Part shown: positions 14,274 through 26,655 of the stretch, piece by piece
Position numbering within the stretch: the stretch's first letter is position 1
Layout of the letters: each line of letters begins with the position of its first letter
Assembly (NCBI GenBank): GCA_965218695.1
Contig: OZ244651.1
Location: forward strand, 2,240,001 to 2,304,000
Length of the DNA stretch: 64,000 bases
Source of the DNA: Nitrosopumilus sp.
Lineage (GTDB): Archaea; Thermoproteota; Nitrososphaeria; Nitrososphaerales; Nitrosopumilaceae
Reading direction: 5' to 3'
The notes under the pieces: model-generated
What the model was told of the DNA's origin: nothing
Databases searched by the model: none
What the model saw: only the letters and a program-made list of their open reading frames with translations
Position numbers and translations under genes: made by a program

Positions 14274-15625
14274 CCTCCCTAGAGGATGCGCTGACCCATT
14301 CGAGGAACGCAGGAATCGACGAGTGCGAGATAGTCCGCGCGACAAGAAGGGTCACCACAGTACGAATAACCGATTCGGCAATAGCAGAAGTCAAGCAGGG
14401 CCTGGATGACAGGTACGGAATCAGGCTGATTCACCAGAAGAGGATTGCCTCTATTCAGACGGCCAGCAGCGATGATCTGCGGGGATCCGTTGACGATGCG
14501 CTGAATTCGTCAAAGAGCCTCAGGCCCAGGGAGTTCTGGGGCGGGCTGCCGCACGCAGCACGTCCCGTGCAGCTCGAGGGTACGTTTGATGAGAGACTCA
14601 GGGACGTCTCGGGGGCAACGGCTGCAGACATTGCACAGGACATGATAAACTCGGCTGCAGACGACAGGGTTGACACCGTTACAGGATCGCTTAACATAGT
14701 CTCGGAGCGTTTTGAGATAGAAAATTCCAACGGACTGCACCACGCAGACGATGCAACGTACATTGCAGGAATCATCAATGCAGACTCTGAACACGGAGTC
14801 GTGCCGGTATCCGGCATCGGCCACTCCAGTGCAAGAACCCTGTCGGGCTTTTCGGCAGGACGTGCAGGACAGGACGCAAGGGAGATGTGCATCGGGTCAA
14901 TAAACCCGCAGAAGATAGAGCCTGCAAGATACTCGGTAATACTTGAGCCGTATTCGGTGGGAGAGCTGCTCTCGTTTGTCGTCGCGCCAAACTTCAACCT
15001 CAAGACGTTTGCAGAAAAGAGGAGCTGCTTTGCAGGCAGGATTGGGGAGAGGATTGCAGCAGAGGAACTGAGCATGGCCGACGACCCACACATGCCAGAG
15101 GGGATAGGGACAAGATCCATAGACGACGAGGGCGTGGGCACCCAAAAGAGGCTGCTCATAGACAGGGGCGTCATGAGGGGCACCTTTTCAAACATGCTTG
15201 ACGGCTACAGGGAGGGGACAGAGTCGTCTGGAAACGCCACAAGGCATGGCATCCCGATGGGCCGAAGCTGTGATCCAGTTCCGGACTCTGCTGCACACAA
15301 CCTGACAATAGAACCCGGCAGAATGTCCCAAGACGAGATGATAAGGGATACCAGAAGAGGGCTGCTGGTCGGGAGGCTCTGGTATACGTATCCGGTAAAT
15401 CCCATCAGGGGCGACTTTTCATGTACGGCAAGAAGCGGGATAAGGATAATCAAGGACGGCACAGTTGTTCCAGGAGTGCCAGTCAGGATAATACACAACC
15501 TACATGCCATGCTTGGCAGCATCTCGGGGATTGGAAGCGACCAGAGAAGCGTCATTCAATGGGCATCGCGCCCGGCAGCCGCACCGTCAGTCAGGATAGA
15601 CGGCGTCCCGGTAGAGGCCATATGA
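14270..15625 (+). CDS. TldE/PmbA family protein
   Basis: DDPH..G.GTRSIDDEGV, SSGNA, VNPIRGDFS; lacks the HExxxH of TldD. Confidence 0.88.
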   Translation: MTSLEDALTHSRNAGIDECEIVRATRRVTTVRITDSAIAEVKQGLDDRYGIRLIHQKRIASIQTASSDDLRGSVDDALNSSKSLRPREFWGGLPHAARPVQLEGTFDERLRDVSGATAADIAQDMINSAADDRVDTVTGSLNIVSERFEIENSNGLHHADDATYIAGIINADSEHGVVPVSGIGHSSARTLSGFSAGRAGQDAREMCIGSINPQKIEPARYSVILEPYSVGELLSFVVAPNFNLKTFAEKRSCFAGRIGERIAAEELSMADDPHMPEGIGTRSIDDEGVGTQKRLLIDRGVMRGTFSNMLDGYREGTESSGNATRHGIPMGRSCDPVPDSAAHNLTIEPGRMSQDEMIRDTRRGLLVGRLWYTYPVNPIRGDFSCTARSGIRIIKDGTVVPGVPVRIIHNLHAMLGSISGIGSDQRSVIQWASRPAAAPSVRIDGVPVEAI

Positions 15626-15933
15626 GGAGTCACCACCCCTCTTTGAAGAATGCCAGGGCCAAGTATGCAGCAGCAGCAGGCAGCAGCATAACCGCCCCCA
15701 GCCTGTCTTATTCCCGTACCGTGTGACTTGACATGCATTGAAACAATCACTCTCTCCCCCCAAAAGAGAGTCCCATCGGCAGAATGCATGCCCAGGCAGA
15801 TCCCGGATCCTGACACGTGGCCGGCTCCGGTTCTGTGAAGTTGTAGGTACATAGGCATGAATATGGATCTTCTCCAGATTGATGCTCGGGAGGGCACTGT
15901 TCAGAATTGTGGATCAATGTTAAATCATGCCAA

Positions 15934-16065
15934 GCCAGATCATCTATGGTAACCCGTCCCCGGACCTATCCTTGCCTTGCGTCCGGCTTGCCACTTTGTG
16001 TATGCCTTTTGCCCTCTTAAGCATTATCTGCGGACAGAATCCTGCCAGATCCGCAGAAGATACGG
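15934..16065. repeat. solo arm of the long-TIR MITE at 26383-26655
   Basis: shares ATCTATG.TAACCC.TCCCCGG, TTGCGTCC.GCTTG, CTTAAGC, CAGAATCCTGCCAGATCCGC with 26390-26503. Confidence 0.75.
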
Positions 16066-16217
16066 CTGTTTGCCCCGCGACGTGACATGCATAATCCCTT
16101 CCGGGGGGTCTGGGGGGCGTCCCCCCAGCATTCATGTAAAAACATCCCGTCATTCCCATAATTTGTGCACAGCATCCGCTATATCCGGCAGGTCTGCTGA
16201 CGTCACCGGTTCTGCGT

Positions 16218-17291
16218 CTACACCCTCATCAGCTTCTTCATCTTGGTGCGGTACAGCGTCTTGTTCCTGTCCACGTACAGGGTGCCGTCCGACAGCATAT
16301 GCCATATGATCGTCAGCATCTTGTTTGCGACGTGCGTCATGGCAATGTACGGCTTGTGCCTCTTGATCAGGCGGGCATAGTACCCCTTCATCCTCACGTC
16401 GTGGTGCGCTGCGACCATCGCGCACTGGATCATCACCCAGTTGACCTTCCGGTTCGAATCCTTCTTCATCCTGCCGTGGTACAACGTGTCGCCGGACTGG
16501 TGGAGCGTGGGACACATCCCGGCCCAAGACACGAGCTTCTTTGGGCTGTCAAACCTTTCGATGCCGTCGATCTCCGCTGACACGAGTGCAACCGAGAACA
16601 CGCTCATCCCCGTCATGCTCAGTATTTTGGAGCTGTAGCTGCCGCTGACGTAGCGCCTGATCTCGCCTTCGGTCTTTTTTATCTCGCCGTTGTAGTGCCT
16701 TATCCTGGATATGCAGCGGTCAAGGACGAACCTGTCGTGGACGCTTCCCATGTCCGCCCCCACGAGGTATTCCAGTACCTTCTCGCTCCAGACGTCTTGT
16801 CCACCGTCCTTGGGGCTGATGTCGTACTTGTCAGTCAGCGTGTGCCCGAAGTTGATCTCGCTTGTCCTGTCCTGCACCAGACGGATCTGGTATCTGATGA
16901 CCTGCTTTATCCCACGGGATTCCGTGGATCCTATGTGGCATGCGGGAACCAAATCGGCCCTGAGCAGGTGGGCAAGCGTCCTTGCGTCGACGGTGTCGTT
17001 CTTTATGCTGGCCCACGCGATTGCCTTGATCTTGAACGGGTTGGCAAGGTCGATGGGGATTCCCGCCTGCTCAAACGCGTCTGCCGTCTTTATCCAGTGG
17101 TTTCCGGTAGACTCGCAGACCGCCCTGCACTGCCCGTATTCGGTCCTGGCACTTGCCGCAAACTCGGAGGCGCCTGCCACGGTGTTGGCGTACGAGGATT
17201 CCTCGAGAATGTTTCCCTTTGAATCCATTATGCACGTGACGCACTTCCTCTTTCCAATGTCTATTCCGATACTCTTTTCTATTTTTCTCAC
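16218..17291 (-). CDS. IS110-family DEDD recombinase/transposase
   Basis: IGIDIGK, VCESTG, IKNDTVDARTLA, FDSPKKLVSWAGMCPTLHQSG (serine motif). Confidence 0.95.
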   Translation of the reverse strand: MRKIEKSIGIDIGKRKCVTCIMDSKGNILEESSYANTVAGASEFAASARTEYGQCRAVCESTGNHWIKTADAFEQAGIPIDLANPFKIKAIAWASIKNDTVDARTLAHLLRADLVPACHIGSTESRGIKQVIRYQIRLVQDRTSEINFGHTLTDKYDISPKDGGQDVWSEKVLEYLVGADMGSVHDRFVLDRCISRIRHYNGEIKKTEGEIRRYVSGSYSSKILSMTGMSVFSVALVSAEIDGIERFDSPKKLVSWAGMCPTLHQSGDTLYHGRMKKDSNRKVNWVMIQCAMVAAHHDVRMKGYYARLIKRHKPYIAMTHVANKMLTIIWHMLSDGTLYVDRNKTLYRTKMKKLMRV

Positions 17292-17299
17292 CTCCCTTT

Positions 17300-17448
17300 T
17301 GCTTGTGGCAGGCCGGAAGCTGCAAACATCTATCAGGGCTCGGAACCCAGTAACACAGCAGCTCGGATGGCCCCATTCACTAAACAGGCCTTGATGGCCA
17401 TGATCTGATAGGGGTCGGCCCGCTACGTATGGTGGGCGTGTGGGGTTA
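17300..17448 (-). ncRNA. candidate IS110 bridge RNA
   Basis: two tandem stem/internal-loop/hairpin modules (17369-17420 and 17318-17363) directly upstream of the recombinase; transcribed strand not established. Confidence 0.6.
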
Positions 17449-17485
17449 TCATGCGTTCACCAAAAATGAACAGTACCTACTGGAA

Positions 17486-19249
17486 GTAATTGTTTCGCTT
17501 TTTGAAGTAACCGGATGGCCTAGCGGACATCCATGGTACCGGGAATGAATCTAATAATTTCGTACTCGGGATGACAAAGTTAGACCATCGCGATCCAAGT
17601 ACGAGTGGGTGCCAGTCCCTTCGATCTTTGGAAATGAAGGAACCAGCACGCCGAACATGCTTGGAGGCGGAGGAATTTAAGGCAATGCACGAACACTCCT
17701 TGCCGCAAATCCCGCTGGATGCCGGGGCGTGCATGGAACCAGGGTGCAGGTGCTGCCTGCACTGGGCAAAAATGTTCGGCGACGTGCTAGGCCCAACCCG
17801 CAAGATCCTGGAGGCAGCCTGCGAAATTGCAGGCGAGTCGGGCGCAGACTGGAAGGAGGCCGGGCGCCTGCAGGCGCTCGTCTCGTCCCTCACAGAGGAC
17901 AACAAGAGGTACGCCAAGACAAACAGGGATCTCAACGCCAAGGCAAACGGGATCAGCGTCCCCGCGCCCAAGAAGAAGGCCGGTCAGGGAAAGAAGGCCG
18001 CCGGCAGGCCCAAGGGGCAGAAACCCACCGTCAACTGCAGGCCAAAGCGCGTGGACCGCGTCGAGGAGATCGACTGCAAGGAGTGCCCCGACTGCGGCGG
18101 CGGGCTCTCTGGGAGGGTGACTGCCGAGTACGATCGCATCGTGACTGTCATGCGCGTCCTGTTGGAGAACGTCAGGTACGTCATCAAGCGGCGCTGGTGC
18201 CGCGTGTGCAAAAGACAGGTCTCCGGGAGGGTTCCCGGCGCGGCAAAACACGCGCGCCGTTCATCAAACTTTGACGCGGTCATGACGTCCCTGAACATGA
18301 ATGGCATGTCGCATGCCAGGACCGCAGAATTTGGCGGCGACGCGTTGGGGCACGTAACCTCGCGCTCGTCTGCCTACCGCGGCAAGATCAGGCAGGCCGG
18401 GCGCATGGCGCCGGAACGCGATTCGGTAAGGGAGCGCGTGCTGGAGGCGCCACACCTGAACGTAGACGAGTTTCACTGGCCGCTGGGCGGCAAGCGCGGC
18501 TACGGGATAGTGGCTCTGGCAAAAAATCACTGCCTCGTGGAGGTGGCCGACTCGCGGGACATCAAGACGCTCCGCCAGACGCTCCCGGGCTACCGGGGAA
18601 CCATAACGCAGGACTCGTATCCCGGGTGGCTCCACGTGGGATCGTGCCGCCAGATGTGCGTGTGGCACCAGGAACGCCTGGTGCAAAAGGACGTCCTGAC
18701 CAACCCCGGGGGTGACGTTCCGGCGTTTCTGGACAGGCTGTCGGCAATCCACATGAAGATTTACCGCGCCTCCAGGATCAAGGACCGGCACCCAAGGATC
18801 GTCGCTGCCCGCTGCATAGACGCGGAGCTGCGCGAGCTGATGAACGAACCGTTTGCAGGCGACGGGGACGGCACCATCGCCCGGCACAAGAAGAGGTACC
18901 CGCGGGAGGGATATTTCATGACCACCTGCCTGCACGTGGACGGCATCGAGCCTGACAACAACGCAGTCGAGAGGGCCAACCGGAGGTTCGTGGCCGTAAG
19001 GAGCGACGGGGGCGGGAACCGCTCCAGGAAGGGCATGGATGCCAACTCGATCCTGTTCACGCTGCTGGCAACTGACAGGATCAACAAGGACAGCTTCTTT
19101 GATCACCTGGTCCGCTCGTCTTCCGGGGACGGATGAGGCGCCGTCCGACGGCACGTGCAGTGCGTCACGGGGAAAAAGAGTCCACGGTAAGGGGAAGGCT
19201 GCACCCGCTCCGCTGCCAAGCAGCCCACTTCAAAAAGCGAAACTATTAC
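17486..19249 (+). mobile_element. IS66-family (single-ORF, ISBst12-like) insertion sequence
   Basis: 23-bp TIRs GTAATTGTTTCGCTTTTTGAAGT / ACTTCAAAAAGCGAAACTATTAC; 8-bp TSD TACTGGAA (17478-17485, 19250-19257). Confidence 0.93.
17571..19136 (+). CDS. IS66-family transposase
   Basis: coiled coil, GRPKG, CPDCG..C..C zinc ribbon, NVDEF, TQDSY, QMCVWH, PDNNAVERANR; true start may be downstream. Confidence 0.9.
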   Translation: MTKLDHRDPSTSGCQSLRSLEMKEPARRTCLEAEEFKAMHEHSLPQIPLDAGACMEPGCRCCLHWAKMFGDVLGPTRKILEAACEIAGESGADWKEAGRLQALVSSLTEDNKRYAKTNRDLNAKANGISVPAPKKKAGQGKKAAGRPKGQKPTVNCRPKRVDRVEEIDCKECPDCGGGLSGRVTAEYDRIVTVMRVLLENVRYVIKRRWCRVCKRQVSGRVPGAAKHARRSSNFDAVMTSLNMNGMSHARTAEFGGDALGHVTSRSSAYRGKIRQAGRMAPERDSVRERVLEAPHLNVDEFHWPLGGKRGYGIVALAKNHCLVEVADSRDIKTLRQTLPGYRGTITQDSYPGWLHVGSCRQMCVWHQERLVQKDVLTNPGGDVPAFLDRLSAIHMKIYRASRIKDRHPRIVAARCIDAELRELMNEPFAGDGDGTIARHKKRYPREGYFMTTCLHVDGIEPDNNAVERANRRFVAVRSDGGGNRSRKGMDANSILFTLLATDRINKDSFFDHLVRSSSGDG

Positions 19250-19902: not shown

Positions 19903-20057
19903 TGAGAAGTATCCATGCTTGGCACTTATGTGAAGTATTTTTTCGTCACCGAACTCAATTCAGAGAAGACTCATTTCCAGCTCCCGTAAACCCGACAGAA
20001 CCAATCTGGAGAAGATCTATATTCATGCCTATGTACCGATAACTTCACAGAACCCCG

Positions 20058-26382: not shown

Positions 26383-26655
26383 AGATCCACATCTATGTTA
26401 ACCCCTCCCCGGGCTTGTCCAAGTTTTGCGTCCAGCTTGTCATATTGAGTATGTTTTTTTCCTTCTTAAGCGTTACCTGCATGCAGAATCCTGCCAGATC
26501 CGCGGGACAACAAGATCCAAACCTTGCCGTTTTCTGCAAATTTGACTGAATTCTTCTTGCAGGTAACGCTTAAGAAGACAAAGGGCATACCCAAAGTGAC
26601 AAGCTGGACGCAAAACACGGATGAGTCCGGGGAGGGGTTACATATATGTGGATCT
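26383..26655. mobile_element. MITE with about 100-bp imperfect inverted arms
   Basis: AGATCCACATCTATGTTAACCCCTCCCCGG..TTGCGTCCAGCTTGTCA..CTTCTTAAGCGTTACCTGCA mirrored by TGCAGGTAACGCTTAAGAAG..TGACAAGCTGGACGCAA..CCGGGGAGGGGTTACATATATGTGGATCT; no clear TSD. Confidence 0.8.

Follow-up and report, generated by a model that had tools for sequence, protein, structure and literature searches.

Element boundaries and recombinase

The window, a 64,000-nucleotide stretch of a Nitrosopumilus sp. contig (OZ244651.1), contains on its minus strand, at 15943-17457, what is by its sequence very probably an insertion sequence of the IS110/IS1111 superfamily that combines a DEDD/Ser recombinase with a two-loop guide RNA of about 125 nt. 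The element body measures 1515 bp and is flanked on each side by a TG dinucleotide. Its recombinase gene (16218..17291, minus strand) runs for 357 codons with no internal stop and an uncertain start codon, a GTG within GGAGGTG. The product matches PF01548 and PF02371 (E 4.6e-22 and 1e-19; 78.9 and 71.1 bits against cut-offs of 29 and 21.3), aligns with the solved IS621 recombinase (8wt6; E 8.9e-10, 41.6 bits) with the catalytic residues D11, E60, D99, D102, and S266 in register, and contains a G-x-x-P-x4-SG motif, GMCPTLHQSG, at 258-267. With both Pfam domains, an open frame, and the IS621 catalytic residues in place, the initial annotation was right to have the RNA precede an IS110-family recombinase that is intact, in a genome of Nitrososphaeria type.

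Two non-coding ends enclose the gene, all parts being given on the minus strand. The left end (LE, 17292..17457) is 166 nt long, begins AACGCATGATAACCCC, contains the guide RNA, and carries the left subterminal inverted repeat GATAACCCC (17450-17442). The right end (RE, 15943..16217) is 275 nt long, carries the right subterminal repeat GGGTTACC (15955-15948), and terminates GGGTTACCATAGA. Outside the body lie the left and right copies of the TG core (17458..17459 and 15941..15942, the latter placed by comparison of paralogue junctions), then the left target flank (LT, 17460..17466), TTTTTGG on the coding strand, and the right target flank (RT, 15936..15940), ATCTG. Read from its flanks, the target of the window copy is ...TTTTTGG-TG-ATCTGGC....

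Where does such an element end? Seven paralogues in the same genome can be aligned for about 190 nt past a CATGA at 16136-16132, and only beyond ...GGGTTAC(C)ATAGA-TG do their flanks differ; within-genome copy comparison gives the same type of right end in eight other genomes. Unoccupied sites in the own genome read LT-TG-RT with a single TG, and occupied sites read LT-TG-(AAT ACATGATAACC ... CATAGA)-TG-RT, so that one TG in unoccupied paralogue sites corresponds to a TG at both occupied junctions. The flanks of paralogues C/H adjoin at four other places in the genome; for paralogues D/E the right flank recurs at one place, and those of F/G/I/J at five. The TG core was read from unoccupied sites of three paralogue subfamilies, and in these three, comparison of unoccupied with occupied sites indicates insertion without target duplication beyond TG and without terminal inverted repeats. 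Every left junction examined reads TGA. An AT core with target TGAAT, as the junctions alone would suggest, was considered and dropped, because the unoccupied sites assign AAT to the element and TG to the core.

The target motif of the F/G/I/J subfamily, CGTGTTGCATAATT, which differs from the target of the window copy, has 18 further unoccupied sites in the own genome at one mismatch or fewer, against 0 for a reversed control. Several of these occur as inverted pairs about 1.1 kb apart (for example C1:1128407/1129518, 1877360/1878471, and 1439787/1440897), as the ends of another element would.

The right end appears to be composite. Within it, GGGATGTTTTTACATGAAT (16130..16148, minus strand) is similar to right ends known from related families (GGATGTTTTAACATAG in the relatives G325/G038, GGATGTTTACATAG in L038) and looks like a relic of an earlier right end. 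The outer 190 nt (window 15943-16130) resemble the tail of a second element, and the last 115 nt begin GCTTAAGA..., like the final codons of related recombinase genes, and terminate in the working right end, an arrangement that suggests a chimeric origin. Elsewhere in the window (about 26390-26648) a head-to-head pair of fragments occurs, each about 115 nt long, homologous to the final portion of this family's right end, and ending ...CATAGA/CATATA-TG-TGGATCT; the pair may be a small non-autonomous derivative.

Other repeats surround the element. To its left, 27 nt from the left TG core, 119 nt (window 17486-17604) recur at 100% identity four times on the main contig, with three further copies at 99%, 97%, and 87%, and look like the end of another multi-copy element. 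To its right, a 53-nt stretch (window 15829-15881) recurs inverted at 20002-20054 with 94% identity. Paralogues in the own genome have been interrupted as well: two (L003 and L006) have their right end split at an identical position by about 1.2-1.3 kb of inserted DNA, one (L007) has an insertion in its left end, and one (L011/L010) has an insertion of about 1.7 kb inside the gene. The right ends of five loci (L044, L042, L067, L070, and L058) share a conserved palindrome, TAGCGATAGCT, about 85-90 nt before the right end, followed in four of the five genome groups by a TATA-like TTAAA/ATAAA, L058 having the palindrome without the TATA-like box. Palindrome and box together may form an outward promoter reading across the circle junction. 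In two Thermoplasmatales relatives (L027:2832-2900 and L028:3229-3300) the right flank, GGTTCAAATCCCTTCC, is like the T-arm of a tRNA gene.

A two-module RNA and its homologues

The bridge/seek RNA core (17304..17426, minus strand) consists of an outer stem and two internal loops, the first assigned to the target and the second to the donor, with a small hairpin closing each loop. Module 1 reads CCCC-TATCAGATCAT (17410-17400)-GGCC ATCAA GGCC-TGTTTAGTGAAT (17386-17375)-GGGG, and module 2 reads AGCTGC-TGTGTTACT (17357-17349)-GGGTT CCG AGCCC-TGATAGATGTTT (17335-17324)-GCAGCT. These are the two modules reported in the initial annotation, which read on the minus strand exactly as written there, and a covariance model, R1, matches the same interval with 125.2 bits, the copy itself being part of the seed.

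A single sequence says little about this fold: its minimum free energy of -56.9 kcal/mol is no better than chance (z = -0.55, with 49/200 shuffles equal or better), and Rfam 15 returned only two chance-level matches below the gathering score. Homologues are plentiful. In the own genome there are about seven paralogues of nearly full length, 78-79% identical, and, with fragments, 28 matches in total; scanning a single genome for each species yielded 15 loci, of which the best (74% identity) is in a Nitrosopumilus sp. MAG; and within the same order 55/401 genomes, the own genome included, have a match at E <= 1e-20. Upstream regions remain alignable in homologues down to about 35% protein identity. 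For 18 such sequences aligned together, the RNAalifold consensus has 22 pairs, of which 16 show compensatory changes, and R1 was built from this alignment. The model finds 67 RNAs in 82 loci, the window copy ranking among the best three of the 67.

Across these 67 model-aligned sequences, 95.4% of cells pair and 19/22 pairs change on both sides, counts that come from kindred sequences in an alignment fitted to R1 itself. None of 500 shuffles reaches any of five pairing measures, and sliding the partner by 1-3 columns lowers pairing to 31-50%. The structure that had been expected to be conserved among homologues is conserved by these measures, and we conclude that the two-module RNA structure is real as judged by comparative sequence, its support coming from homologues and not from the single sequence. 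Strand can be read from the same pair table: 86/1287 cells, summed over the 67 sequences, are G-U and would be A-C on the opposite strand, so the RNA would run in the direction of the recombinase gene. About 20-28 nt ahead of the first model position lies an A/T-rich box, TGATAAC here and TGTAAAAAC and TGAAAATC in relatives, which overlaps the left subterminal repeat. Its distance is fitting for an archaeal TATA box, and the RNA may be transcribed from there.

Loop strands against target and donor DNA

We set the four loop strands of each RNA, as given by the alignment to R1, against the DNA around the corresponding element, and as controls paired each guide with the flanks of other elements. 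In the window copy, the 5' side of loop 1 (17400..17410, minus strand) contains CAGAT-CA-T, the reverse complement of A-TG-ATCTG, that is, of the last right-end base, the core, and RT. On its 3' side (17375..17386) GTTTAG is the LT guide, TG is the core, and AAT corresponds to the element's first bases, in a handshake-like manner. The 5' side of loop 2 (17349..17357) has TGTGTT, complementary to the element's first six bases AACGCA with one G-U wobble, and its 3' side (17324..17335) has ATAGA-TG, the element's last five bases and the core, followed by a variable TTT tail.

The same pattern runs through the family. The 3' side of loop 1 gives the sense of LT and TG and then three bases equal to the element start; its 5' side gives the reverse complement of TG and RT, usually with one or two right-end bases before. 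The 3' side of loop 2 gives the sense of the last five right-end bases and TG, then 1-3 variable bases, and its 5' side opens with four to six bases that are the reverse complement of the element start. The register of the core is not uniform, the 5' side of loop 1 being one core base short in paralogues C/H and in L026, and several guide mismatches are G-U-compatible.

Five tests set cognate against non-cognate DNA, and in none did any of 10,000 permutations equal the cognate value. For LT, the longest shared word averages 7.94 in cognate and 4.82 in non-cognate pairings (32 distinct guides), and the junction-anchored match 4.48/7 against 1.83/7 (50 distinct combinations from 57 elements). 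For RT, the longest shared word is 7.0 against 5.9 (39 guides), and the match anchored at the right end, which was located in 49/60 elements with 47 kept at a subterminal-repeat match >= 5, is 4.55/7 against 2.22/7 (44 combinations). The first 4 nt of the 5' side of loop 2 agree exactly with the left end in 74/108 cases (27 combinations). At the other end, the right-end hexamers ATAGAT, ATAGGT, ACAGAT, ATGGAT, and ATGAGT each equal the 3' side of their own loop 2, the right end having been fixed by copy comparison, independently of the loop, in 8/9 genome groups. Because loop sequences covary in this way with insertion flanks and element ends, we regard the locus as a bridge/seek-RNA element, as the initial annotation had proposed in calling the RNA bridge-like with a target loop and a donor loop.

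Parts of the loops fall outside this scheme. For the last five bases of the 5' side of loop 2, toward its 3' end, our comparison found no pairing partner. Pairing of GGGTTAC on that side with the subterminal repeat was considered and rejected, as it fits only the family of the own genome, without covariation elsewhere. In the tail on the 3' side of loop 2, the second base gives a mixed result when set against that of RT, and we therefore limit the claim to "handshake-like".

Taken together, these matches suggest how the RNA could work. Loop 1 would read the target, its 5' side pairing with the coding-sense strand of TG and RT and its 3' side with the opposite strand of LT and TG. Loop 2 would read the element's joined ends: its 3' side would pair with the opposite strand of the last five right-end bases and TG, and the initial 4-6 bases on its 5' side with the coding-sense strand where the left end begins. 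Immediately 3' of both 3'-side guides, the bases would match the partner DNA arriving after strand exchange, as the handshake guides of IS621 do. The element would be excised as a circle with the junction ...CCATAGA-TG-AACGCATG..., the recombinase would bind the RNA, and the complex would join the circle to ...TTTTTGG-TG-ATCTG... sites without a double-strand break.

Copy state, RNA position, and relation to known groups

How active is the window copy itself? Its RT guide and core match 8/8 and its donor guides match its own ends (ATAGA-TG on the 3' side of loop 2; AACGCA on the 5' side, with one wobble); its LT guide matches 5/7, with two mismatches. The sequence variant is present as a single copy, all other copies in the genome being only 78-79% identical, so that copy number gives no sign of recent movement. 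A search of the own genome for an unoccupied site of this copy, at three mismatches or fewer, gave 0 hits, and in G265, the best relative among 61 genomes of the genus, homology ends about 125 nt before the junction. Contigs from four metagenome runs over 15500-17900 contain the occupied left junction, and they show neither a joint that skips the element nor a circle, the depth there being a sum over many related elements and hence uninformative on the window copy. Around loop 2 (window 17282-17443) the summed depth in the four runs ranges from 85 to >2000, against 3-10 over the gene body, from which we conclude that the samples hold many related elements.

These observations bear on what the locus could be instead of an element that can still move. 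The one alternative with appreciable weight, though we consider it unlikely, accepts the RNA family and the element as real and takes the window copy for a fixed fossil. The absence of a second copy of its variant, the two mismatches in its LT guide, its place within a patch of other repeats, and metagenome contigs that have the occupied left junction and no joint skipping the element all fit such a state. A decayed copy would be less expected to keep an open reading frame with its catalytic residues, an RNA score among the best three of 67, or an intact pair of ends with their subterminal repeats and TG cores, together with donor guides that fit. Very little probability attaches to the idea that the structured leader is a cis-regulatory 5' UTR of the recombinase mRNA, controlling translation or stability and guiding nothing. 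The RNA does stand directly before the ribosome-binding-like GGAGGTG; however, a UTR leaves unexplained why the loops vary in step with sequence beyond the element and with the ends of the element itself, and in five relatives the homologous RNA follows the gene, a position that makes this role impossible.

Least credible of all is the anatomy first drawn for the locus, that of an IS621-like element ending at CATGA (16136-16132) with CATGA as its core, a circle junction GATGTTTTTA-CATGA-TAACCCC, and an empty target GGTGAACG-CATGA-ATGCTGG. It had in its favor a CATGA near both places and a GATGTTT in loop 2 of the window copy. Yet the alignment of seven paralogues continues for about 190 nt past that point, their flanks diverging only after ...CATAGA-TG, which moves the end to 15943 and leaves the earlier site as the relic end; the core in unoccupied sites is TG; the paralogue ends and unoccupied sites contradict the junction; and the element's own junctions give ...TTTTTGG-TG-ATCTGGC... 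as the target. GATGTTT is peculiar to the window copy, its paralogues having GATGCAT, GATGGAT, or GATGTAT in loop 2, and because it is not conserved we take this match for chance. The guide strand order, moreover, is opposite to that of IS621. Of the other short matches proposed, TGATA and TCAT do lie within real guides and had been matched to the wrong places, and GTGAAT was partly right, being made up of the final LT base, the TG core, and three bases identical with the start of the element. The suspicion of "a longer core or a different guide register" was correct as to register, which follows the IS1111-type strand order, and mistaken as to the core, which is 2 nt, TG.

In the reading we prefer, a guide-RNA element with its right end at 15943, the RNA precedes the recombinase gene. 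It does so in 63 of the 69 R1 hits, these being thaumarchaeal copies, and follows the gene in 5. The downstream cases are at 28-32% protein identity and come from Planctomycetia, Atribacteria, Thermoplasmatales (two), and Methanophagales; two of them, inspected by eye, follow the same logic, with a right end AAGGAA-TG agreeing with the 3' side of loop 2 and a 9-nt RT match. Downstream hits with the same guide logic imply one RNA lineage on either side of the gene with unchanged polarity. It is possible, at a likelihood we put a little short of even, that the Nitrososphaeria clade represents a natural intermediate between the two described layouts, in which the RNA moved while guide polarity, core, and subterminal repeats stayed as they were.

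If so, RNA gene position and guide polarity would be separable, and homologous RNAs on both sides of the gene would bear on how the RNA moved between ends. The window subfamily would then be a natural donor-end switch, its loop 2 fitting the new outer right end and the older relic lying 190 nt inside. The anatomy set out here (TG core, four guide segments, and handshake-like extensions) is defined for a family spread through ammonia-oxidising archaea; in the own genome, many copies with differing guides beside unoccupied sites form a natural data set for rules of target choice. The family offers 30 or more natural guide/target pairs, and one genome alone has numerous unoccupied sites; on this basis it could provide ammonia-oxidising archaea, organisms for which we know of no genetic tools, with their first native programmable recombinase. 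RNA-guided IS110/IS1111 recombinases are already known and in development as genome-writing tools, and another example is by itself unsurprising. What this case adds is a union of marks that the two founding papers keep apart: an upstream RNA, IS1111 polarity, and long subterminal repeats.

In the literature searched, no thaumarchaeal bridge RNA is described; the supplementary tables and phylogeny of Durrant et al. and Siddiquee et al., which lie outside that scope, may list such layouts. Relatives on bacterial plasmids (594 records, all <60% identity and about 32% among those listed) are annotated only as "IS110 family transposase", and R1 has no match in the two bacterial plasmid relatives searched (L102 and L103).

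In the published descriptions, the first loop of the IS621 bridge RNA is for the target and the second for the donor, with all guides containing the CT core (Durrant et al. 2024, PMC11208160), and bases adjoining the guides for the top strand form a "handshake" by pairing with the non-cognate strand as it comes in (Hiraizumi et al. 2024, PMC11208158). As far as these accounts go, our element resembles IS621 and the IS110 group in having an RNA that precedes the recombinase, within the left end, with loop 1 for the target and loop 2 for the donor, opposite-strand guides that overlap on a 2-nt core, bases 3' of the guide that match non-cognate DNA, and conserved catalytic residues. It differs from IS621 in its guide strand order, reversed relative to gene orientation, in its TG core where IS621 has CT, in its long subterminal repeats and long right end, and in its short 5' guide in loop 2 (4-6 nt); protein similarity is weak, at the 41.6 bits given above.

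IS1111-family seekRNAs are described as having a guide strand order reversed relative to IS621 (Siddiquee et al. 2024, PMC11187229), and subterminal inverted repeats are given as a mark of IS1111 (PMC11208160; PMC11187229). Judged from published descriptions and not by protein alignment, the element shares with ISEc11, ISKpn4, and ISPa11 (PMC11187229) a guide complementary to the top strand that lies 5' of the bottom-strand guide, subterminal inverted repeats (8-9 bp here and 12-15 bp in relatives, the IS1111 range being 7-17 bp), a DEDD transposase with the G-x-x-P-x4-SG motif, and a long right non-coding end. It departs from them in its RNA, upstream of the gene here and downstream there, and in its archaeal host.

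The element thus has the marks of IS1111 except in RNA position, and those of the IS110 group only in RNA position. By description only, three elements come close to this combination, being likewise IS1111-like with an upstream or double long non-coding region: ISMtsp17, ISAcp5, and ISHvo10, whose name we take to be Haloferax-style. All three appear as IS1111-type exceptions, with an upstream non-coding region or two long ones, in a source whose account of them gives no analysis of their RNA or guides (PMC11187229). Measured against both groups, the sequence evidence gives us high confidence that the Nitrosopumilus element is a genuine bridge/seek-RNA system of the IS110/IS1111 world, an unusual layout of a known kind of system.
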